The notes under the pieces are model-generated. The model was not told where the DNA came from and searched no databases. It worked only from the letters and a program-made list of their open reading frames with translations. Positions 25,944-61,164 of a DNA stretch of 64,000 nt are shown here, piece after piece (positions within the stretch are counted from its first letter, which is position 1; every line of letters begins with the position of its first letter). A program made the translations under genes and the position numbers. This DNA is from an uncultured bacterium (GTDB taxonomy: Bacteria > Patescibacteriota > Minisyncoccia > Phycocordibacterales > GWA1-40-21), in NCBI GenBank assembly GCA_963804975.1, contig CAWDSG010000001.1, positions 118-64,117 on the forward strand, read 5' to 3'.

Positions 25944-27029
25944 TTAATTAATAAGATTTTCTAATTCTATTGGAATATCGACTAAACCTTTGTTTTTTAG
26001 AATATGAGTAACACCGTATATAACTGAACCACTTAATAAACAAATTGTTTTTTCCATATCTGCAGACATTCCTTCAATACTATTGCCTTGGAAATTGATC
26101 GGAAATCCATTATTCACAAAAATAACGTTTTTATTTACCACATCTTTATGTATTTCTTTATCTTTTCTAAAATCTGCAACGGGAAATTCTCTATCGGCTG
26201 ATGAAACGCTTATAAGATATAACTGTTTATTTAGAGAAGAAATTTTTTCAATATCTTTTTTGAGCAATACCGGGAAACCTGTAGCCCCTATAATAACATC
26301 TGGTTTTATATTTAAAATATTTTTAATTAAATTATTATGACCGTATTTAACATCAAATCCTTGGATTTTAAAATCATTTTGCTCTAATATTTTTTGCATT
26401 GCTTCCCCTATCGGCCCAAGACCGACTACAAATATTGATGGATTTTTTATATTTTTAACTTGAAAATAATTCTTAATTTTTTCAAAACAATCACGAGCAA
26501 TAAACGGGCTTTCCTGAATCAATTTTGTCTCGGATCTTGCAACATTTACAACAGGAAAATTCATTTTTTTATTCTCAATTTTTCTGAAGCCTGACGATGT
26601 TTGTTCAACGGCAAACAAGACATCTCTTTTATTATCAGCAAAAGTCATTATAAGTTCTGCCCCATCATCCAAAATAACGATTTTTTTATCTTTAGGCACG
26701 AGATCGAGTATCATATTACAGTTGTTTTTATGTTCAATATCAAAAGCTTTGCCGGAAAATTCAGGCTGGAAAACTTTTATGCCTTTATCTTTTAGTTCTT
26801 TTAAAATACTGGTATTTGTTGAGTATATTTTTCCTAAAACAATTATTTTGTTCGGATTAAAGCCAAAATCCACCAAATATTCAAACATTTTTAATTGCGG
26901 TTCAAGTAAATGTTGGCAACAAACTAGATAATAATCGTTCACATCATGAGGAATATTTTTGAAATAACCAAATACTTTTTGTAATAATGGATAATTGTAG
27001 TCCATATTTGACAAGTATATCAGATACAA
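25944..27029 (-). CDS. NAD(P)-binding Rossmann-fold protein of unknown function
   Basis: 361 aa; VVGLGPIGEAMQKIL dinucleotide-binding motif. Confidence 0.4.
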   Translation of the reverse strand: MYLIYLSNMDYNYPLLQKVFGYFKNIPHDVNDYYLVCCQHLLEPQLKMFEYLVDFGFNPNKIIVLGKIYSTNTSILKELKDKGIKVFQPEFSGKAFDIEHKNNCNMILDLVPKDKKIVILDDGAELIMTFADNKRDVLFAVEQTSSGFRKIENKKMNFPVVNVARSETKLIQESPFIARDCFEKIKNYFQVKNIKNPSIFVVGLGPIGEAMQKILEQNDFKIQGFDVKYGHNNLIKNILNIKPDVIIGATGFPVLLKKDIEKISSLNKQLYLISVSSADREFPVADFRKDKEIHKDVVNKNVIFVNNGFPINFQGNSIEGMSADMEKTICLLSGSVIYGVTHILKNKGLVDIPIELENLIN

Positions 27030-51167: not shown

Positions 51168-51788
51168 TTATTTTTTATATTTTTCAAGAATTTTTGACCA
51201 TTTTTCATAATTTTCTTTGGCAAAATTTTTATGTTCCTCGGAACTGATGCGTTTGAACATCCAATCTAGTTTTTCTTTGATTTTTTTGTATCCTTCAATT
51301 GGCGCTTTTTTGACAACAAACATTTCGGCGTTTGTTTCAAAATAACTTACTGAATCAGCATCCATAAGCGCATTTTGCTCAAAATCACCGCCAACCTCAT
51401 GTTTGCTTATAAGATGTTTGACCGTTTCAACAAGTTCTTTCGGTGCTTTTTGAGTGCTTAGAAATTCTGACATAATTTCAGCGCCTTTTTCCTGATGATT
51501 CCTTAAAAACTCCTGATCAAGATAGTTTTCAGGAACTGATTTGTTTTTGTCTCTGAAAGCGCGTTCAATATCGTGGCTGTATGCAGCGATTTTTTGAGCT
51601 TCCGTTGCTTTAGGCAGAAATTTCTCAATCCAAAATACAGCTCTTTCAAAATGAGGTTTTTGTTTACCTTGAAAAGATTTATCTACATATTCAATTGTTT
51701 TTTGATATAAATTCATTTTCGGTATTGAGATATTCGGATCACATTTATTATTCGAATGAGATGAAATGTTTGAGAGATTCAGACCCAT
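51168..51788 (-). CDS. HD-domain phosphohydrolase
   Basis: 206 aa; H...HD (AAYSHDIERA) metal-binding motif. Confidence 0.65.
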   Translation of the reverse strand: MGLNLSNISSHSNNKCDPNISIPKMNLYQKTIEYVDKSFQGKQKPHFERAVFWIEKFLPKATEAQKIAAYSHDIERAFRDKNKSVPENYLDQEFLRNHQEKGAEIMSEFLSTQKAPKELVETVKHLISKHEVGGDFEQNALMDADSVSYFETNAEMFVVKKAPIEGYKKIKEKLDWMFKRISSEEHKNFAKENYEKWSKILEKYKK

Positions 51789-52233
51789 ATATTTTTATTA
51801 AACCTTGTGTTCTTGTACGCATATCAGGATCTTTCTTTGCAATATTTTCATACCATGTATCAATTGCTGTAGCTATGTCATTACAAAATATATCTATTTG
51901 CATTTGTAAGATACCTTTAAAATTATTCATATGCACGATATTAGCACGAGGAGGTGGGGTAATAAAGTGAACTTTTTCAATTACCATCCGAGTATCCGTA
52001 TCAACACCTTGGTGTAAACAACTACAACGGAAGCACCATGCATCTTCCGCAGAAAACATCGATGTATAAATAGCTAAGTTTTCGTTGAACCATCTTTTGT
52101 ACCTAATCCCGTTTTCTTCATTTGGAGTTTCTATAACTCCACAGATATCTGGCATACAAAGTGCAAGAAAAAGTGCAGCAAACCAATTTTTATCTATTAT
52201 TGCTTTTCTTATTGAGTTTGTGAAATCTTGCAT
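51748..52233 (-). CDS. Hypothetical protein, overlaps HD gene by 41 nt
   Basis: 161 aa ORF. Confidence 0.35.
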   Translation of the reverse strand: MQDFTNSIRKAIIDKNWFAALFLALCMPDICGVIETPNEENGIRYKRWFNENLAIYTSMFSAEDAWCFRCSCLHQGVDTDTRMVIEKVHFITPPPRANIVHMNNFKGILQMQIDIFCNDIATAIDTWYENIAKKDPDMRTRTQGLIKIYGSESLKHFISFE

Positions 52234-52490
52234 ATTTAGTGCTTGGGTAACTCCGATATTTAATTCTCTTGGCGGAGAGGCTCGTGTTCCGAACTTTCTC
52301 GGTCAAGCCCTGTAATGTTATTTCAACGATTTTCAGCATATCAAATTGATGCGTCTCGTGCTACTACAAAAGGTGACACTTTTATTGAGCAAAGATTACA
52401 GTAGTATGTAACCTTTTGTTATTTTATAAGGCTTAAATTAAAAATAAATTGTAACAAAGTTACATTCTAAATTTGAGAATTTTATATATC

Positions 52491-52718
52491 TTAAAGATAA
52501 AATGAAACGAATTGAAGTAAAAATCCAATTGCAAGAAGCCCTACACCGAAAAAACCGATCACTCGATCTGTAGAAAAAAACTTTTTTGCATATGGATTAC
52601 TACCCCAATAAGTTTTGGATTCTTTTTCTATACGGTCTTTAGACCTAATCATCCCCAGTCCTAAAAGTAAGCTTCCAGCAAAATTAAAAAATAGTCCAAT
52701 AAGTTCCAATGCTTTCAT
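52491..52718 (-). CDS. Small 2-TM membrane protein, last gene of lexA-TIR operon
   Basis: 75 aa; two hydrophobic helices; 4-nt gap to upstream gene. Confidence 0.45.
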   Translation of the reverse strand: MKALELIGLFFNFAGSLLLGLGMIRSKDRIEKESKTYWGSNPYAKKFFSTDRVIGFFGVGLLAIGFLLQFVSFYL

Positions 52719-52722
52719 GTTT

Positions 52723-53334
52723 TTATTTTTTTATATCCTCCCTATCTTTTTTAGTAAAGAGTGAATACAGATATAATATTATTGATGTCAGCAAAAGAAG
52801 AAATAAAATGGTGTCCAAAATTAAACCGAAATTTATTTTTTGATACGCATTTACCCACTCCATAATTATTTTAGCTATGGCTGAAATGGTCAACAATGTA
52901 GGGAATGCCAATACGTAGATGAACCATGTCCAGTTTGAAAATGCAGGATAGTCTGATAGGTAGGATTTTCCCTCTCTGGTAATAAGATCCTCTCCAAATT
53001 TATTATTCATTTTATCCTCGATCTTATGAACATACTTGTATTGTCTTTCAATAAAAATCGCGGACTGGAAATATCTCAACGTAAACACAAGTAACAAGAA
53101 CCACACGATATTTCCGATAATGGAGAAATTCAATTCCAAGTTCAGACCATATTTTGACATTAACAGACTTTGTACAATTTGGTTTGACACACTGGGAAAC
53201 AATGCCTGAAAAGCGAAAAAGAAAAGCGTAAGAACAACCCATAACAACGCCCTGTCGCGGCGTTTTATGGTATCATTAATATTCGAACAAGTTTCTTTGT
53301 AATGGTCGTACAAAGTTGAGGTACTATCCAACAT
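52723..53334 (-). CDS. 4-TM membrane protein (candidate effector of lexA-TIR module)
   Basis: 203 aa; four predicted TM helices; start 2 nt after TIR stop. Confidence 0.5.
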   Translation of the reverse strand: MLDSTSTLYDHYKETCSNINDTIKRRDRALLWVVLTLFFFAFQALFPSVSNQIVQSLLMSKYGLNLELNFSIIGNIVWFLLLVFTLRYFQSAIFIERQYKYVHKIEDKMNNKFGEDLITREGKSYLSDYPAFSNWTWFIYVLAFPTLLTISAIAKIIMEWVNAYQKINFGLILDTILFLLLLTSIILYLYSLFTKKDREDIKK

Positions 53335-53336
53335 AT

Positions 53337-53774
53337 TTATCTTTTAGGGTAAGGAGCTTCGTCCAAAGCTTTTATGATATTATCTTCTGTAAAAGAATAG
53401 CACCATGAAGCATTTGCTCCAGTAAGCTCATCCGGTGAATCATAGGTTCTGTCGAGTTTTACTACGGCAATACGCTTACCAAGTTCTTTACTTTTTGCAA
53501 TTTCAAAATTGATCCAATTTTTATAACCGATCAAAGCCCTGTTTCTGTGCGGTGCATTTGCATTTTCTCCGACAATAACAAGAGTGTGGGTTGCTTCTTT
53601 GATTTTTAAAGTAAGTGCAGCTTTTACCCTTCCAACATTTGTGCTGTCAATTTCCTCTGGAGTTGCATCATCAAAGACAAACTCAAATCTTGGGTGTTTA
53701 TTCCATGCTTCTAAAAGAAATTTATATTTTTTATCATCTGTATAATCAAAACTAACGAAAATTTCTGGTTTCAT
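53337..53774 (-). CDS. TIR-like domain protein (DUF1863 / MTH538-type, Thoeris ThsB-like)
   Basis: 145 aa; IFVSFDYTDD start, central ...TLVIVGENANA..., W..FEI.....K.I..V.LD pattern typical of DUF1863 TIR-like fold. Confidence 0.6.
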   Translation of the reverse strand: MKPEIFVSFDYTDDKKYKFLLEAWNKHPRFEFVFDDATPEEIDSTNVGRVKAALTLKIKEATHTLVIVGENANAPHRNRALIGYKNWINFEIAKSKELGKRIAVVKLDRTYDSPDELTGANASWCYSFTEDNIIKALDEAPYPKR

Positions 53775-53786
53775 ATATTTTATGAA

Positions 53787-54404
53787 TTAGTATAGATCAG
53801 TGGGAAGCACAGCCACGACAACTCCCTGAATCTTACAATTATCTGTTAATATAATCGGCTTGTGTGCAGGATTTTTTGATCTTGGTCTCAAAATCACTGC
53901 ATCGTTTGTTCTCTCAAACATTTTCACTGTCGCTTCCTCATCAATCAAAGCTACGACTTTATCACCATTCTCAGCGCTTTCTTGCTGTCGAACCAAAAGA
54001 ATATTTCCGTCATTGATCCCGGCGAGATTCATGGAATCTCCCTCTGCTCTTAAAAGAAAATATTTCGATCCCTTTTTCGCAAGAGCTGTCGATACTGGAA
54101 GATATGTTTCAATATTTTGTTTGGCGAGCATCGGTGCTCCGCACGGCACCGATCCTACTAATGGAATATTGATTGTTGAGATGGAAGTCGGTATGCCGAA
54201 ATCGGTTGATATTATCTTTCCATCCTTTCTTTTGATAAAGCCCTCCTTTTCAAGACGATCGAGCACCAAACTGGCTGAACGGGGAGATTTACCCTTCGTC
54301 ACCTCGTTTATTTCAGCTAGGGTTGGTCCTGTACCAGTATGGATGAACTTGTTCCTGATAAGGATAAGCGCTTTTTTGTCCTTGTCACTTGTGTCTCTTG
54401 GCAT
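53787..54404 (-). CDS. lexA: LexA-like repressor (wHTH + S24 autopeptidase), start at MPRDTSDKDKK
   Basis: ILIRNKFIHTGTGPTLAEINEV wHTH; cleavage-site region VPCGAP; S24 catalytic GDSM and K (…VRQQ..NGDKVVAL). Confidence 0.8.
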   Translation of the reverse strand: MPRDTSDKDKKALILIRNKFIHTGTGPTLAEINEVTKGKSPRSASLVLDRLEKEGFIKRKDGKIISTDFGIPTSISTINIPLVGSVPCGAPMLAKQNIETYLPVSTALAKKGSKYFLLRAEGDSMNLAGINDGNILLVRQQESAENGDKVVALIDEEATVKMFERTNDAVILRPRSKNPAHKPIILTDNCKIQGVVVAVLPTDLY

Positions 54405-54465
54405 ATTGGTATAAGATAGTATACATGAAGGTATAAATATTGCAAGCCAGTTATAAACAGAAAAT

Positions 54466-54876
54466 ATGGAATACAAAATGGAAGCAAAACCGTTCATTCA
54501 AAAAGACGGGGTAAAATATAAAACTATTCAGGTAACCGATATTACTCTTCACTCCGATCATCTCAGAGTAACGGCAAATATCGGCGACAAGATTAAAAAA
54601 GCCTTTGACATAAATCGAGCCGGAAGATTTTACGAGGATTCCGTTCTGAAAGATGTCCTGGAAAATCAAAGAAAATATATTTTGGAAAAATTGAGCAACG
54701 ATCCGAGCTTTCGGGAATTCGTTCTGGAAGAAGAACGCAACGGATACAAGATACTGCTCGATATACCAAAAGAGGGCGTACCCGTTTTGGCGGGAAAAGA
54801 TACCGTAGAATTTTTAAATAGCAAGAACGGCAAGAGAGTTTTACGGGGACTTGCAAAAGAGAAACGAGAGGATTAG
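54466..54876 (+). CDS. Hypothetical protein divergent from lexA-like gene (element early gene?)
   Basis: 136 aa ORF. Confidence 0.35.
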   Translation: MEYKMEAKPFIQKDGVKYKTIQVTDITLHSDHLRVTANIGDKIKKAFDINRAGRFYEDSVLKDVLENQRKYILEKLSNDPSFREFVLEEERNGYKILLDIPKEGVPVLAGKDTVEFLNSKNGKRVLRGLAKEKRED

Positions 54877-55050
54877 AATATGAATGTTCGGGTTTCTGCG
54901 TAGTAAAAAGTAGAATAGCGTACCGCATAAAAAACCGTGCCTATTCCGCGCAAGAAATGAATCAAGATCTAGTCGGTCTTCTTTTATTTCGTTGTGTGGA
55001 GTGGGCTTTTTCTATTTCCATGCATTTTATAAAAATAATTTTTGTAAATT

Positions 55051-56368
55051 ATGCAAAAATTAAAAAGGGAGGTGTCAAAGAAATTAGTTTGGCACACCGA
55101 AGTCAGGAGAGTGCGAGATTTATCCCCTTACAAGAAGAATCCCCGTTTGATTAGCGACGTGCAGATGCAGGCGCTTCAGCGAAGCTTGAAGAAGTTCAAC
55201 CTTGCCGAACTGCCCGCGATCAACAAGGACGGGACTATTGTCGCTGGTCATCAAAGAATAAAGGCTTTGATACTGCTTGGTCGAGAGAATGAAAAAATCG
55301 AGGTGAGAATTCCATCGCGACAACTTACACCATCTGAGTTCAAGGATTATTTGCTCACCTCGAACAGCTCTGGAGGGAGCTGGAATTGGGAAATGCTTTC
55401 CAATGATTTTGATTTTGAAACGCTCAAGACGGTCGGTTTCGACGACATCGACCTGAGTCGTGTGTTTGATGAGCGTATCAAGAAGTCAGAAGATAAATGG
55501 GACGATGAAGCCGAGTTGAAAAAAATAAAGAAGACGAATATCAAAACAGGCGATTATTTCGCCCTCGGCAGACACCGTTTGATTTGCGGTTCATCGCTCG
55601 ACAAAGCAATGGTGAATACACTAATGGACGGAGCAAAAGCTGATCTTGTTGACGATGACGTACCTTTTAATATAGGGCTTTCATACGACAAAGGCGTGGG
55701 CAATAAACGCAATTATGGCGGAACGACAAATGATAATAAAACGGATGAGGAATATAAAACATTCGTCAAGACAATTATCGAGAATGCACTTTCAGTCACT
55801 AACAAAGATGCACATATCATATTCTGGTGCGATGAGCGCTATGTGTGGCTTTTACAGACGCTTTACAAAGAACTTGGGATCGATTCGAAGCGACTCCTCA
55901 TTTGGGTTAAGAACAATTCTTCACCCACACCCACGGTCGCTTTCAACAAGGTGGTAGAGTTTGCCGTATACGGCAGTATCGGAAGACCGTATCTCTCCAA
56001 GATCGCAACCGATCTCAATGAAATACAAAATGACGGAATGACAGGGGGTAACGATCTGCACGATGAGATTATCAACAACTCCAATCTCATGCTCACCAAA
56101 AAGACTTCCAAGCAATCAATACGGTCATCCTACGGAGAAAAGCCCTCTTCTGCATTACAAGGCAATCAGACGCTGTACCAGAGTCGGCGGTATCGTCCTC
56201 GACCTTACAGCGGGTTCAGGGAGCATACTCATGGCGTGCGAAGAATTAAAACGAACAGCATATCTCTGTGAGCTTGAGCCGGTGTTCTGCCAGCTCATCA
56301 TCAATCATTATGAGAAGCTTTCGGGAAAGAAAGCAAAATTAATTGCACGCTCCCATGAAGAAAAATAG
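55051..56368 (+). pseudogene. ParB-like nuclease domain + N6/N4 DNA methyltransferase fusion (phage-type), interrupted by a frameshift near 56110
   Basis: N: ParB motif TIVAGHQRIKAL; MTase continues in ORF 56063-56368 with HPTEKSPLL..VLDLTAGSGS (motif I region). Confidence 0.6.
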
Positions 56369-56771
56369 AATACAAGGAATATTCTTGGAGCATCTGAAAA
56401 CCGTTCCGATCGTGCAGGTATGTTGCGACAAGGCGGGCGTATCAAGAAACAGCGTATACGAGTGGCGAAAGAAAGACCCGAAATTCGCGGAAAATATGGA
56501 CAAGGCGATGATTGAGGGTGAAGCATTCATCAACGATATTAGCGAGGGACAACTCTTCAATCTCATCAAAGAGAAAAGCTGGCCCGCGCTTGCATTTTGG
56601 CTGAGAAGCAGACATCCAAAATTCAAAGAAAAGGTCGAGATTACCGGAACGATAAAAAACGAAGAGAAAGTTCTCGATTACGAGCAGGAGCAATTGCTCA
56701 GAGAAGCGCTCCGTCTTGCATTGCCGAACAATAATATAAAAAATCCAAATGGAAAACCAAAACCGCAATGA
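56343..56771 (+). CDS. Putative phage terminase small subunit (HTH)
   Basis: 142 aa; N-terminal HTH (VCCDKAGVSRNSVYEWRKKDPKFA), immediately upstream of and overlapping terL. Confidence 0.5.
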   Translation: MHAPMKKNRIQGIFLEHLKTVPIVQVCCDKAGVSRNSVYEWRKKDPKFAENMDKAMIEGEAFINDISEGQLFNLIKEKSWPALAFWLRSRHPKFKEKVEITGTIKNEEKVLDYEQEQLLREALRLALPNNNIKNPNGKPKPQ

Positions 56772-58191
56772 GGAATACATCATCGACCAGATGATCAAAG
56801 ACAAGACATTCCGTCTTGCCATGGTGAAGAAAAGCCATTACTGGTTTTTCCATTATTACTTCGGCAGAAAGTATGCAGAATTTCCAACGGCTGATTTTCA
56901 ACGAGAGATTTTCAATCTCACGGAAAATCCCGATCTTCGCAATATCGTCATTACCGCTTTTCGAGGAAGCGCAAAAAGCACGATCATCACCCTCTCATAT
57001 GTCATCTGGTCAATTGTCGGAGAAAAACAAAAGAAATTTATTCTCATATTGGGTCATACTCAAATGAGCACGCAGAAACATTTGATGAATATTAAAAAGG
57101 AATTGGAAAGTAACACGACTTTCAGAGATGACTTCGGACCGTTCAAAGAGGAAGTCGATCAAGACGGAACGCAATCAATTCTGCTTCCTCAATATGAAGC
57201 GAACATATCCACTCGTTCGATCGGACAAAATATTAGAGGTATACGGCACTTTCAGCACAGACCAGACTTGATCATTGCAGACGATATTGAGGATGCCGAG
57301 TCAGTCAAAACGCAAGAGAACAGAGATAAAATGTTCGACTGGCTCACGGGAGATGTCATTCCCGCGGGAGAAAGAAATACCCAACTCGTGTTTATCGGTA
57401 CTCCTTTGCACAATGATTCAACATTGATGAGAATGGAAAAGTTTTTCCAGAACGATGATCCGAGAAATGTCTTTAAAAAATATCCGATTGTCGATGAACA
57501 CAATGTACCGCTCTGGTCAGGCAAGTTTCAAACGCAGAAAGACATCGACGACGAGAAAACAAAATGTCTTGGAAACGAACTGACATGGCAGAGAGAATAT
57601 CTTTTGAAGATCGTCGACAATGATTATCAAATCATCAAAAGAAATGAGATTCACTACTACACCGAACTGCCGACTGTGGCTCCGAGATTCTCCGCCCTTT
57701 CCGTTGATCCCGCACGGTCGCAAAAAGCGACCGCTGATTGCACTGCCATGGTTTCGGGAAGAATATACGGATCGGGCAAGGACAGAAAATTGTACATTCT
57801 GCCGAATCCGGTGAACGAACGACTCACCACCGATCAACTTATAACCAAAGCAAAAAGTATTTCACGGAGTCTGAACAATTCGTCATATGCCCGGGTATAT
57901 GTCGAAGACGTGAACTTTCAAGGAATATTCACCGAGCTTTTGAAAAACGAAGGAGTGCCAGCAAAACCGTTTCCGGTAAAAGGTTGGAGCAAAGAAGATC
58001 GTTTGAATGCGGTATCGGCTTTGATTCAGCTCGGAAAAGTGCTTTTCGCCGACAAAGGCAACGAGGAACTTGTGGAACAGATACTGGGCTTCGGGAAAGA
58101 AAAACATGATGACCTTGTCGATGCGACCACCATGCTGATTCTTCAGATGTTCGAGGATTCGAAATTTACGCCGAGTGTAACATGGATATAG
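56749..58191 (+). CDS. Phage terminase large subunit (ATPase + RNase-H-like nuclease)
   Basis: 480 aa; Walker A AFRGSAKST, Walker B LIIADDIED, nuclease Asp residues (SVDPA, DDLVD). Confidence 0.75.
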   Translation: MENQNRNEEYIIDQMIKDKTFRLAMVKKSHYWFFHYYFGRKYAEFPTADFQREIFNLTENPDLRNIVITAFRGSAKSTIITLSYVIWSIVGEKQKKFILILGHTQMSTQKHLMNIKKELESNTTFRDDFGPFKEEVDQDGTQSILLPQYEANISTRSIGQNIRGIRHFQHRPDLIIADDIEDAESVKTQENRDKMFDWLTGDVIPAGERNTQLVFIGTPLHNDSTLMRMEKFFQNDDPRNVFKKYPIVDEHNVPLWSGKFQTQKDIDDEKTKCLGNELTWQREYLLKIVDNDYQIIKRNEIHYYTELPTVAPRFSALSVDPARSQKATADCTAMVSGRIYGSGKDRKLYILPNPVNERLTTDQLITKAKSISRSLNNSSYARVYVEDVNFQGIFTELLKNEGVPAKPFPVKGWSKEDRLNAVSALIQLGKVLFADKGNEELVEQILGFGKEKHDDLVDATTMLILQMFEDSKFTPSVTWI

Positions 58192-58193
58192 AT

Positions 58194-58850
58194 TTATAGA
58201 CCAACCGCATTGGCTCCATATTCCGCTTGTGCTTCTGTGAACTTGTCATACTCTAGTTGTGTGATTAAACTGCCTCGTGAAAAAGCGGAATAGCTCATGT
58301 AATCTTTTGCCTTTGCAGCCGCCTGTGCATTCCAGTCAGCACCTGAATTATCTGCGCCATAAATCGCATCCGCCTGTGAAAATTGATCGTACTCCAATTG
58401 AGCAACCAATCCATCGTGAGAAAATGCCGTGTAGTTTAAATAATCTATTGCTTTTGCAACAGCATTTGCCTGACTGACCGTTTCGCTTGGCGCTGTCGAT
58501 TGAACTGGAGCAGGTGTCGGTGCTGGTGTTGAAACAACCACAGGAGTTTGCGTAGGTTGAGTCACAACTGCTTTCTTGGTAATGACAGGCGCTTGAGTGA
58601 CTGGCTGTGCAACTGGTGCAGACGTTGTTGCAACAGGTGTTGGATTTTCGGTTGTTGCCACAACAGGTGCGTTTTGTGTCTGAGTGGCTGGAGAAGCTAT
58701 CGCCGCACAGATAAAGAAAAAGACAATGAGTCCACCACCGACCAAGGTGACATCTTTTCGAGATTTCAATTTTACAACTTCCGGTTTTGTTAAACCAACA
58801 ATCAATACAACGATTGATACAAGTATCAGAACAATAAATAATGATTCCAT
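58194..58850 (-). CDS. Ltp-family (host cell surface-exposed lipoprotein) superinfection-exclusion-like protein, 2 repeats, TM anchored, Pro/Thr-rich linker
   Basis: 218 aa; repeats AVAKAIDYLNYTAFSHDGLVAQLEYDQFSQADAIYGADNSG and AKAKDYMSYSAFSRGSLITQLEYDKFTEAQAEYGANAVGL match the Ltp tandem repeat. Confidence 0.6.
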   Translation of the reverse strand: MESLFIVLILVSIVVLIVGLTKPEVVKLKSRKDVTLVGGGLIVFFFICAAIASPATQTQNAPVVATTENPTPVATTSAPVAQPVTQAPVITKKAVVTQPTQTPVVVSTPAPTPAPVQSTAPSETVSQANAVAKAIDYLNYTAFSHDGLVAQLEYDQFSQADAIYGADNSGADWNAQAAAKAKDYMSYSAFSRGSLITQLEYDKFTEAQAEYGANAVGL

Positions 58851-59155
58851 TTTTTATTTTTACTAGCTGATAAAGCCAGTGATGGAATTTTTGGAAAACA
58901 AAAAGCCCACCACATGGGTGATGGCTTGCGCCATCCATACCAGTTTCCCGATATGACCAATGACGATAGCCCCATATGATGGGTTTTCTATTCGTCATTG
59001 GCTTTCTTTCATCATGCCAGCAATTACTCACTGGTTTAGATTACTTCTACTTATTCAGTTGTCAGTGAACATAATAGCTCTTTTGCAACTATTATTCAAC
59101 CGATCATATCGCCGATCACTTCTTTTGCTAAGCGAAGTTGCCAACAGACAAAATT

Positions 59156-59737
59156 CTATTGTATTTGTACAACAATATGGCTCATAGTCCCCAAAACACC
59201 TTCCAGATAGTTACTTAAGAGAAAAGACATCCCAGTTAAAATCGCAGCGATAATAAGTGCAAATATAAAAAATATTTTTTCAGGAGATTTCTGTTTAAGA
59301 AAAGAAATTCCATTGGACACAAATTTTACTCTAAAAAGATAATGCGACACTGGCATTGTAACCATCAATGGAATAATAACTGGCAGTACGAAATGAGATA
59401 AATTTCTGTATAAGATACAGAAAAATGCAACGACAAGAATATAGCCGATAATTAGCACATATTTAAAAGCTCTTAATCTCGGTTCTACTTTTGGTGGAAA
59501 TTTAAAAATAATTTCTGACCATATTAGCATTGCGCCGATCATCATAAGAAGTATAAACGCATATGCAATCAAAATTGCCCAAAGAGGAACAATTTTATTT
59601 ACCATAGTTGCTTGTAACACAGTTCCCAAAACACCTGAAAAACCGAGCATGGTTCCCATAGAAGAAATAAGAAAACTGTTCTCTTTCAAAAAAGATTGCA
59701 GGGATACTTTTTCAGCTGTTTTTTCTTCGATTTCCAT
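59156..59737 (-). CDS. Multi-pass membrane protein (hypothetical)
   Basis: 193 aa, 5-6 TM. Confidence 0.35.
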   Translation of the reverse strand: MEIEEKTAEKVSLQSFLKENSFLISSMGTMLGFSGVLGTVLQATMVNKIVPLWAILIAYAFILLMMIGAMLIWSEIIFKFPPKVEPRLRAFKYVLIIGYILVVAFFCILYRNLSHFVLPVIIPLMVTMPVSHYLFRVKFVSNGISFLKQKSPEKIFFIFALIIAAILTGMSFLLSNYLEGVLGTMSHIVVQIQ

Positions 59738-59844
59738 ATATTGGAAATCTAGTCCTTTTTACAGAAATAGCAAGTCAGAAATTGCCAACGTATTGTCAAC
59801 GATTAGTGCTTAGCAGGGCACTCTTTCTCTGTCATTAATATTGT

Positions 59845-61164
59845 ATGGAAACTAAAGTTGCGATTCCAATATTCAATCAAATTGTGCCACCGGTGGAAAA
59901 AGTGAAATACGTACTGTATGCCAGAAAAAGTACCGAGAGCGAAGAAAGGCAAATCCTTTCGATTGATTCGCAAGTCAAAGAAATGCTGCAACTGGCAGAA
60001 CGTGAAAATCTGGAAATTGTGGATATTCGAAGAGAAGCTCATTCAGCCAAAGATTCAGGACAAAGACCGGTGTTCAAGGAAATACTCTCTGATGTAAGAA
60101 GAGGAAGATTCAACGGCATACTGGCTTGGGATGCAAGCAGAATCAGTCGTAATGCAGGTGATCTTGGAAGTATTGTAGATCTCATGGATCAGAAACTTCT
60201 CCTTGATATTCGTACCTATGGACAGCAATTCAAGAACTCTCCGAATGAAAAGTTTTTGTTGATGATTCTCTGCTCACAGGCAAAGTTGGAGAATGATAAC
60301 CGAGTGATCAATGTAAAGCGAGGGCTTCGCACTCGATGTGAAATGGGACTAAGACCTGGAGTGGCACCGACAGGATATCTCAATGAAAAACGATCAGACA
60401 TGAAATGCCACGCTCGCATTGATCCAGAACGAGCACCTGTGATCAAAAAGATGTTCGAGAAAGTTGCATATGAGAAATGGAGCGGAAAGAAGATATACAA
60501 TTGGTTGAAATTTGAATTGAATTTCAGAACGGCAAATGGCAAGAAGAATTTGAGTTTGGGTAATGTCTTCGTTATTCTCTACAATCCTTTCTATTATGGA
60601 ATGTTTGAGTATCCAAAAGAAAGTGGTAATTGGTATCAAGGAAAACACCAACCGTTAATTACTAAAGAACTTTTCGATGCAGTTCAGGCTCAAATGAAAA
60701 GCAACGTTTTGAGAGTCGGGAACAAAGAATTTGCTTTTACCAAATTGATGACCTGTGGCCTTTGTGGATCGGGTATATGTGCCGATGAAAAATTCAAGAA
60801 ACACAAAAATGGCAATGTTCATAGATATGTTTATTATGGCTGTACCAAAAACAAAGATAAGAATTGTAAATGCGGATATATTGAAGAAAAAGATTTGATC
60901 AAACAGTTTGAATTGCTTCTTGATAAAATAGATATGAATGAAATCAGCATTAAAGAAAAAATTAAAACTGAAGTCGAACGATTTAAAAAATTCAATAGAG
61001 TATTACTCGGAATTACTGACAAAATAGAAATTGTTGATATTGATATAAGGGCTTATACAAAATTCATTTTGAGGGAAGGGACTGATTTGGAAAAAAGAGA
61101 GTTGTTGGGGTGTTTAAGGAGTAGTATCATGTTGAGTAATAAGAAAATCTCACTTAAATTTTAA
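59845..61164 (+). CDS. Large serine recombinase (second copy, homologous to 40445-42118)
   Basis: 439 aa; YARKSTESEERQ, RISRN, zinc-ribbon CGLCGS..YYGCTKNKDKNC. Confidence 0.85.
   Translation: METKVAIPIFNQIVPPVEKVKYVLYARKSTESEERQILSIDSQVKEMLQLAERENLEIVDIRREAHSAKDSGQRPVFKEILSDVRRGRFNGILAWDASRISRNAGDLGSIVDLMDQKLLLDIRTYGQQFKNSPNEKFLLMILCSQAKLENDNRVINVKRGLRTRCEMGLRPGVAPTGYLNEKRSDMKCHARIDPERAPVIKKMFEKVAYEKWSGKKIYNWLKFELNFRTANGKKNLSLGNVFVILYNPFYYGMFEYPKESGNWYQGKHQPLITKELFDAVQAQMKSNVLRVGNKEFAFTKLMTCGLCGSGICADEKFKKHKNGNVHRYVYYGCTKNKDKNCKCGYIEEKDLIKQFELLLDKIDMNEISIKEKIKTEVERFKKFNRVLLGITDKIEIVDIDIRAYTKFILREGTDLEKRELLGCLRSSIMLSNKKISLKF

Follow-up and report, generated by a model that had tools for sequence, protein, structure and literature searches.

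Four genes are tightly packed on the minus strand at positions 52491-54404 of the DNA stretch analyzed here (64,000 nucleotides, hereafter called the window), whose host is probably a bacterium of the Patescibacteria, or candidate phyla radiation (CPR). The first gene of this putative operon (53787-54404) encodes a LexA-type repressor of 205 amino acids (aa), in which a winged-helix domain is followed by an autocleaving S24 domain. Its open reading frame (ORF) spans 53787-54497, and an internal ATG at 54404 is the likely start. The following genes encode a ThsB-type TIR protein (53337-53774, 145 aa), a protein with four transmembrane (TM) segments (52723-53334, 203 aa; the 4-TM protein), and a protein with two TM segments (52491-52718, 75 aa; the 2-TM protein). 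We designated the TIR and 4-TM genes as the core of the operon. The former is a predicted infection sensor and NAD+-consuming signal synthase, the latter is a predicted signal-gated membrane effector, and the final 2-TM gene is accessory. The ORF list confirmed the order, strand, and positions of the four genes described in an earlier reading of this DNA (hereafter the original prediction), together with the short spacers of 12, 2, and 4 nucleotides (nt) between them. Because homologues of all four were found elsewhere in protein cluster searches, the four ORFs are real genes. They are presumably co-transcribed; the sole internal sites found in a promoter scan of the operon were weak promoter-like matches that did not exceed those in shuffled sequences.

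The TIR protein and its membrane partner

The TIR protein matched the ThsB_TIR family (PF08937) with an E-value of 2.9e-10 (40.9 bits, with a cutoff of 21.2). It also matched several ThsB models of PADLOC, including ThsB1 (2.5e-10), and the phage family phrog_6988 (8e-35). The AlphaFold2 (AF2) model of the protein, calculated with 36 homologues, had a mean predicted local distance difference test score (pLDDT) of 83.6. A Foldseek search of the PDB with this model gave ThsB/TIR structures (8fz9, 9b7d, 8wcf, and 8v6t) as the best matches, followed by plant and SPARTA TIRs. Trp87, Asn89, and Glu91 in an NWINFE segment are invariant across the 36 homologues, and Glu91 pairs with the Glu residue of "WVPHE" in 8fz9 in a profile alignment. 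We take the NWINFE segment to be the WxxxE catalytic motif of ThsB proteins. The protein is thus a genuine ThsB-type TIR with the catalytic Glu, and the TIR-like assignment in the original prediction held in the family matches, the predicted fold, and the catalytic residue. The TIR is better conserved than the 4-TM protein and the repressor, with median identities to CPR homologues of 67%, 52%, and 46%, respectively.

The 4-TM protein has TM segments at residues 29-47, 68-86, 136-154, and 171-189, as determined by a hydropathy scan. Its AF2 model (pLDDT of 86.1 and predicted template modeling score of 0.79) consists of a long N-terminal helix that continues into TM1, a TM2 that extends as a cytoplasmic helix, a short loop, TM3, and TM4. 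The numbers of Lys and Arg residues place the N-terminus (five), the loop of residues 89-131 (seven), and the C-terminus (five) in the cytoplasm, and the other two loops (one each) outside. The soluble parts are only the N-terminal helix and the loop of approximately 40 residues. Nearly all of the invariant residues are polar and located in these two cytoplasmic parts (His11, Tyr12, Arg26, Tyr88, Gln90, Arg97, Gln98, Tyr101, Glu106, Glu121, Lys123, and Tyr125). These residues are predicted to form a nucleotide-binding pocket.

Relatives of the 4-TM protein numbered 65 in a search of 5.8 billion protein clusters and 907 in a profile search of 1.84 billion representatives, and the family amounts to approximately 900 clusters when grouped at 50% identity. 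Scans of the window protein and 48 of its relatives assigned no Pfam, NCBIfam, PHROGs, or PADLOC family. The only matches were scattered and below threshold (for instance, 8xMP at 2e-4 for one member, and PADLOC RTasSLATT at E = 0.04), and nothing of relevance was found in the literature on "8xMP". None of the 49 family members matched SLATT/DUF4231 in Pfam or NCBIfam, and an hhalign comparison with the DUF4231 protein of phage SN8 gave a probability of 1%. The protein matched neither DUF2270 nor the 4TM model of CBASS (antiphage systems that signal through cyclic oligonucleotides), and no solved structure or known effector family resembling it was found. The PADLOC candidate system PDC-M50 was considered for the pair and rejected; the TIR matches PDC-M50B at 6e-8, but the 4-TM protein matches no PDC-M50 model. 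One protein of 2229 aa (P0069) gave 42 separate matches to the 4-TM profile, all at positions 85-111 (the RYFQ..ERQY region), and is either a repeat protein built on this motif or a low-complexity artefact.

The genomic context of the family was examined at 87 loci containing a 4-TM relative. An exact look-up supplied seven of these loci, and GTDB species genomes supplied the other 80. The ORFs called in these loci were searched with hidden Markov models (HMMs) built for this analysis. Some TIR gene adjoins the 4-TM gene in 85 of the 87 loci. A ThsB-type TIR with a median length of 144 aa is encoded on the same strand in 77 loci. In 75 of these, its gene lies within 60 nt of the 4-TM gene, on the upstream side in 67 cases and only downstream in eight. 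Another class of TIR is adjacent in eight of the ten loci lacking a ThsB-type TIR (L026, L030, L031, L033, L074, L076, L077, and L080). These partners are TIR_2, CAP12-PCTIR_TIR, TIR-NB-ARC-TPR (876 aa), and LRR-Roc-COR-TIR (865 aa) proteins. The remaining two loci comprise one that starts at a contig edge and one that has a DUF7701 gene instead. This distribution suggests that a single effector family serves several TIR sensor architectures.

The hosts of TIR-4TM pairs include Patescibacteria, Bacillus cereus, B. pseudomycoides, Blautia producta, Chloroflexota, Bacteroidota, Omnitrophota, cyanobacteria, and the archaeon Methanothrix. An alignment-based scan of IMG/VR yielded 14 viral contigs that encode a 4-TM relative, and each of them has a TIR gene beside the 4-TM gene. 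The insertion sites include a position between the tape-measure and major-tail genes, one beside the large terminase gene, and one beside a primase-helicase gene (one contig each). A single-sequence scan of IMG/VR with the 4-TM protein and a tblastn search of GenBank phages gave no match. Because the linkage to a TIR is nearly universal and the insertion places in viral contigs are varied, the TIR-4TM pair is a self-contained, horizontally mobile two-gene cassette. The original prediction had pointed to small membrane proteins as the partners of the TIR, and the 4-TM gene turned out to be the sole conserved one. Many CPR elements (L004, L006, L010, L011, and L016) have a second, different ThsB-type TIR gene (182-206 aa, PF08937 at 2.9e-16) directly after the 4-TM gene. 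In most of the related elements described below, a DUF2188 gene lies between the repressor gene and the first TIR gene. The window has neither the DUF2188 gene nor the second TIR gene.

The 2-TM protein (TM segments at residues 3-21 and 50-68 in the hydropathy scan) matched no family, and the 5.8 billion clusters contained no more than two homologues of it (74% and 68% identity). The gene of one homologue (L088-L090) follows genes for a DNA methylase and a 297-aa protein that is possibly a nuclease, and that of the other (L091) follows a gene for an unrelated 227-aa protein. No 2-TM gene was found in the other TIR-4TM loci, and no S24/LexA gene was found near the 2-TM homologues. The 2-TM gene is thus an addition to the operon that does not accompany the pair elsewhere, and it is not part of the system. 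Members of this small family seem to be the last, overlapping gene at the 3′ end of different defense-like operons.

These contexts bear on the possibility that the membrane proteins serve the life cycle of the mobile element, either in holin-like lysis or as a division inhibitor of the SOS response similar to YneA and SidA under the control of LexA. Such a role would fit the two small membrane proteins encoded behind the LexA-type repressor, given that no lysis genes were recognized on the element. However, in bacteria, archaea, and phages, the partners of the 4-TM gene are TIR genes rather than LexA or lysis genes. In phage contigs, it occupies an inserted cassette surrounded by tail, terminase, or replication genes. 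The 2-TM homologues are encoded after methylase/nuclease-like or unrelated genes, and there is no LexA gene close to them. We therefore regard a life-cycle role as highly improbable, and the new SOS division inhibitor proposed in the original prediction found no support.

Comparison with catalogued Thoeris systems

Yirmiya et al. (bioRxiv 10.64898/2025.12.03.692087, December 2025) annotated 29 putative Thoeris types, of which seven new ones were verified (types V to XI) and the rest were presented as "additional putative effectors". Their Table S1 contains some 30 TIR entries with the effector label "4TM", all from TIR cluster 2727267812. The class is given as TIR sequences and an effector label only, with no description of a 4-TM family or its context. 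Over the listed domain, entry 2515955466 has the same sequence as the TIR encoded beside the 4-TM gene of Blautia producta DSM 2950 (L034), and entries ga0307245_116992036 and rank12_100642402 match the TIRs of L027 and L038 by eye. The window has the arrangement of this putative class, a TIR of cluster 2727267812 beside a four-TM protein, and its proteins fall into the same HMM families. Because the preprint lacks effector sequences, the identity of the effector with that of the "4TM" class rests on the shared loci.

Judged by these matches, the operon core is a catalogued, putative Thoeris variant. The original prediction had held that the architecture was unlike that of any described system. 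This novelty does not stand, because the conserved unit is the TIR-4TM pair already listed in Table S1, and the LexA-like and 2-TM genes are not components of it. The window copy shares the TIR family and the partner with the "4TM" class, but differs in its placement in an S24-repressor operon, its location on a compact CPR element, and the additional 2-TM gene. Two features of Thoeris systems are present in the pair: a ThsB-type TIR with the catalytic glutamate, and a dedicated effector gene beside the TIR gene, as seen in the 87 loci and the viral contigs.

TIR cluster 2727267812 also contains the verified type VII TIR of B. licheniformis SCCB 37, whose effector is a SLATT protein (Yirmiya et al.). 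The window TIR is 34% identical to this protein (2e-19). Three type VII systems are listed as verified in Table S2 of the preprint. Three SLATT-associated TIRs were reported there to make canonical cyclic ADP-ribose (cADPR), and cADPR triggers the toxicity of type VII. Type VII Thoeris (ThsB and the SLATT protein ThsH, with cADPR as the signal) resembles the window pair in having a small ThsB TIR beside a small multi-pass membrane protein, but the partner in the window is not a SLATT protein. In types II (TM-Macro protein ThsC) and V (DUF2270 protein ThsF), the proposed mode of action is likewise a TIR signal that switches on a membrane-spanning effector, with death or arrest of the cell as the outcome. 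The window protein differs from these in lacking a Macro or DUF2270 domain.

A similar module is present in the temperate Staphylococcus phage SN8 (NC_055020, 23619-26013; L092), in which genes for a CI-like regulator, a metalloprotease, a DUF4231 protein, a TIR protein, and an integrase are found in this order. In SN8 and 22 related records, a TIR that is 35-37% identical to that of the window is encoded with the DUF4231 protein on the repressor strand. DUF4231 is a SLATT-type domain, and the TIR and DUF4231 genes of SN8 look like a type VII Thoeris system. The SN8 lysogeny module is similar to the window operon in that a TIR gene (35% identity) and a small membrane-protein gene are located on the repressor strand, between a CI-like regulator and an integrase. 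It differs in the DUF4231 partner, in the regulator, which consists of a helix-turn-helix protein and an ImmA-like metalloprotease rather than a LexA/S24 protein, and in belonging to a complete 40-kb phage. Most of the SN8-type TIR and DUF4231 genes are annotated as hypothetical proteins in GenBank.

The roles of the two core proteins may also be reversed, such that the TIR kills the cell by depleting NAD+ and the 4-TM protein acts as a sensor, anchor, or regulator. Some bacterial TIR domains are indeed NAD+-depleting effectors rather than signal makers (Yirmiya et al.), and the 4-TM protein matches no known effector family. However, the TIR is a bare ThsB-type domain of 145 aa that is clustered with a verified signal-producing TIR. 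In addition, four unrelated TIR architectures are found as partners of the 4-TM gene, the large NB-ARC and Roc-COR sensors among them, and therefore a common downstream effector fits better than a specific sensor. We consider this reversed assignment to be improbable.

The LexA-type repressor and the proposed mode of action

The LexA-like protein matched the LexA equivalog model TIGR00498 well above its cutoff (2e-42, 145 bits, with a cutoff of 111), in addition to Peptidase_S24 (1.8e-30) and LexA_DNA_bind (1e-7). It aligns over its full length with the LexA structures 3k2z (1e-25) and 7b5g from E. coli (1e-22). A Cys-Gly pair is located at the scissile position corresponding to Ala84-Gly85 in E. 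coli, and the catalytic residues are the Ser of a GDSM segment and the Lys of a TVKM segment. UmuD likewise cleaves at Cys-Gly. The protein thus has all elements of the LexA architecture, namely the winged helix, the S24 domain, the cleavage site, and the Ser/Lys dyad.

Of the 87 loci, 16 have an S24 gene upstream of the pair; these represent approximately 11 distinct loci, all from CPR-type metagenome-assembled genomes. The 2-TM gene is likewise absent from the other TIR-4TM loci, and the four-gene module of the original prediction is thus not the conserved unit. All S24-bearing loci are situated within the same gene set, which includes a large serine recombinase, the large and small terminases (TerL and TerS), and a ParB-methylase, whereas approximately 70 TIR-4TM loci outside such CPR elements have no S24 gene. 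The S24 proteins at the syntenic position have a common protease domain but differing N-terminal domains. Some of the N-termini are LexA-like (46-54% identical to the window protein), and others are unrelated. Because the DNA-binding domain varies between loci, we infer that the LexA-like gene encodes the master repressor of the mobile element and is not a component of the TIR system. The varied N-termini and upstream repeats are consistent with repressors of distinct immunity specificity and would be unexpected for a housekeeping LexA. The synteny and the variable DNA-binding domains speak against a housekeeping LexA of the host, and the S24 gene lies inside the mobile element. The option that the gene is simply the host SOS repressor followed by unrelated genes, which had been named as a possible refutation of the original prediction, is therefore improbable. 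No second S24 gene is present within the 64 kb of the window.

The repressor gene faces a rightward operon across a 61-nt divergent region, which is the layout of a mobile-element switch. The control region (54409-54445) contains a promoter-like site, TTGCAA-16-TATACT, on the minus strand (54445-54418). Two overlapping 16-bp palindromes were found by eye, GTATA-N6-TATAC (54409-54424) and TATAC-N6-GTATA (54420-54435), which overlap the -10 element and are candidate operators. Because promoter-like sites in this region are not more common than in shuffled sequences, the promoter and operators are only suggestive. A shared operator in the sister elements was sought and rejected; their upstream repeats differ, and there is no common SOS-like box.

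The position of the S24 gene raises the possibility of immunity gated by DNA damage, in which the S24 protein is mainly a dedicated regulator of the pair, and cleavage stimulated by RecA, during phage attack or the SOS response, derepresses an operon that is otherwise off. This was the main idea of the original prediction. The S24 gene is the first of the operon, 12 nt ahead of the TIR gene; in its product, the LexA-type cleavage site and the Ser/Lys dyad are intact, and the candidate operators overlap its promoter-like -10 element. There are also precedents, since CapH/CapP, CapK/CapS, and CapW are reported as DNA-damage-responsive repressors, cleavable or otherwise inactivatable, encoded directly upstream of cell-killing immune operons. 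However, the Cap regulators accompany the immune operon across many genomes, whereas the S24 gene of the window accompanies the mobile element instead. The approximately 70 loci outside CPR elements do without it. It is always found inside the recombinase/terminase/methylase element, where it is the sole repressor-like gene recognized, and it faces the rightward operon in the manner of an element switch. Dedicated gating by DNA damage is thus rather unlikely, although the damage-gating and element-repressor roles of the S24 protein are compatible and not mutually exclusive.

The cI-rexA-rexB operon of phage lambda offers a parallel in organization, because the repressor transcript in the lysogen also gives rise to a sensor and a membrane protein with four helices. 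In both operons, a putative or known abortive-infection pair, with a sensor in the cytoplasm and a four-helix partner in the membrane, would share its transcript with the S24-type self-cleaving repressor of a temperate element and thus be expressed in the lysogen. The two differ in that there is no sequence relationship between them, RexA is not a TIR protein, no nucleotide signal is known for Rex, and the window repressor has a LexA-type winged helix.

With a probability of roughly 60%, we interpret the TIR-4TM pair as a Thoeris-type antiphage signaling system that is carried as abortive-infection cargo and expressed from the repressor operon of a mobile element. Abortive infection, one of the roles raised in the original prediction, is the best reading of the module. 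We infer the following course of events. The small ThsB-like TIR would detect infection by a foreign phage and, via Glu91, turn NAD+ into a second messenger derived from ADP-ribose. Canonical cADPR is a candidate for this messenger, since the TIR shares its cluster with the type VII TIR from a system reported to signal with cADPR. The messenger would bind to the predicted cytoplasmic pocket of the 4-TM protein, which would comprise the N-terminal helix and the TM2-TM3 hairpin with all of the invariant His, Tyr, Arg, Lys, and Glu residues. The 4-TM protein would then oligomerize or open and breach the membrane, and the infected cell would stop before the phage cycle ends. Because the pair is part of the operon of a self-cleaving repressor, it would be made while the element is quiescent, as RexA and RexB are from the cI operon.

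Several points weigh against this interpretation. The 4-TM protein is unlike any known effector, with no match to SLATT, DUF2270, or CBASS 4TM, and the argument for its effector role therefore comes from gene linkage alone. The "4TM" class of Yirmiya et al. is a putative effector class only and lies outside the configurations tested in that study (Table S2). Because the window TIR is only 34% identical to its type VII counterpart, its signal could differ from that of type VII. Co-transcription of the operon and operator binding are presumed from the layout of the genes and sites, and the promoter scan performed no better than shuffled sequences.

The compact element and its implications

The element carrying the operon has a length of approximately 9 kb (51748-61164), with host genes at approximately 51.7 kb and 61.3 kb. 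The GC content is 0.33 at the cargo end, compared with 0.43-0.44 in the element backbone. A 161-aa gene on the minus strand (51748-52233; phrog_18591 at 9e-38) is located 257 nt downstream of the operon, between it and the host genes. No counterpart was found in the other TIR-4TM loci or the sister elements, and it is probably separate cargo at the element edge. Beyond it, the left flank encodes a DUF4202/HD protein, a class II aminoacyl-tRNA synthetase-like protein, and malic enzyme. The right flank encodes an ice-binding-like surface protein (PF11999) and a sortase (PF04203). Far from the operon, the GC content dips to 0.29 at positions 26001-27000 of the window, compared with approximately 0.37-0.40 around them.

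The divergent rightward operon on the plus strand begins with a 136-aa gene (54466-54876), which has no family match and whose homologues occupy the same position in L009 and L015. It is followed by genes for a ParB-N6/N4 DNA methylase (55051-56271 and 56063-56368; phrog_498 at 1e-51, PF01555), the small terminase TerS (56343-56771; phrog_4044 at 2e-12), and the large terminase TerL (56749-58191; phrog_38 at 5e-77). The methylase gene is frameshifted into ORFs of 406 and 101 aa that overlap at 56063-56271, and it is intact (438 aa) in the near-identical contig L001, where TerL is split instead (286 and 173 aa). These splits reflect either assembly errors or ongoing decay. Two genes on the minus strand follow, one for an Ltp-type host cell surface-exposed lipoprotein (58194-58850; PF07553 at 1.9e-20) and a 193-aa gene (59156-59737). 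The element ends with a gene on the plus strand for a large serine recombinase (59845-61164; Resolvase, Recombinase, and Zn_ribbon_recom domains). Ltp proteins of temperate streptococcal phages block superinfection, and by analogy the gene for the Ltp-type lipoprotein may serve the element as a further exclusion gene, in addition to the pair. A DUF4352 protein is encoded at a similar position in the sister elements L013 and L015.

The original prediction had placed the module at the edge of a prophage-like element. The element is indeed mobile and phage-related, but it is not a complete prophage; it measures only approximately 9 kb with host genes on both sides, and no recognizable virion structural or lysis genes are present between them. 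The same backbone gene set is syntenic in the CPR loci L002-L016, and the compact element, with a length of approximately 7-9 kb and an S24 repressor operon, recurs at L002, L006, L008, L009, and L011-L016, in several lineages of Patescibacteria. The element context is conserved in at least 11 distinct CPR loci with host genes on their flanks. Their proteins are 27-75% identical to those of the window, and their host flanks include genes for DNA polymerase III tau/gamma, PilM, PilB, a major facilitator superfamily transporter, and a histidine kinase. The compact set resembles a minimal element that has been maintained, perhaps a phage satellite, more than it resembles a product of random prophage decay. 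A recombinase, a master repressor, and packaging genes in the absence of virion genes fit a phage satellite that is PICI-like in the broad sense, and a decayed prophage lineage could have the same content. The element may represent an unrecognized phage-satellite family or a minimal integrative element.

A more far-reaching proposal combines these features: the compact element would be a new phage-satellite family of Patescibacteria that carries a Thoeris-like pair as its main cargo, coupled to an SOS-cleavable repressor, so that immunity is tuned by DNA damage or induction of the element, and the 4-TM protein would be a new kind of minimal nucleotide-gated pore, whose binding site consists solely of the N-terminal helix and a single cytoplasmic hairpin, possibly reading an undescribed TIR product. 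We put this forward tentatively and hold it to be doubtful. In the literature searched, no paper linking Patescibacteria prophages with Thoeris was found.

The finding extends a known principle and leaves the current understanding of Thoeris in place. What it adds to the existing catalogue is a new context, in which the pair is carried by compact phage-related CPR elements inside the operon of a self-cleaving repressor. The remaining interest lies in the small and widespread putative effector family, its embedding in the repressor operon, and the conserved compact CPR element. TIR-4TM is a widespread predicted Thoeris configuration that occurs in many bacterial phyla, Methanothrix, and phages. 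The operon provides a natural system in which to learn how a mobile element links its abortive-infection cargo to the switch that controls it. The putative effector is very small, at approximately 200 aa, and contains no ligand-binding domain that could be recognized. If the 4-TM protein does respond to a nucleotide made by the TIR, it would be a new minimal ligand-gated membrane effector and could reveal which ADP-ribose isomer is read.

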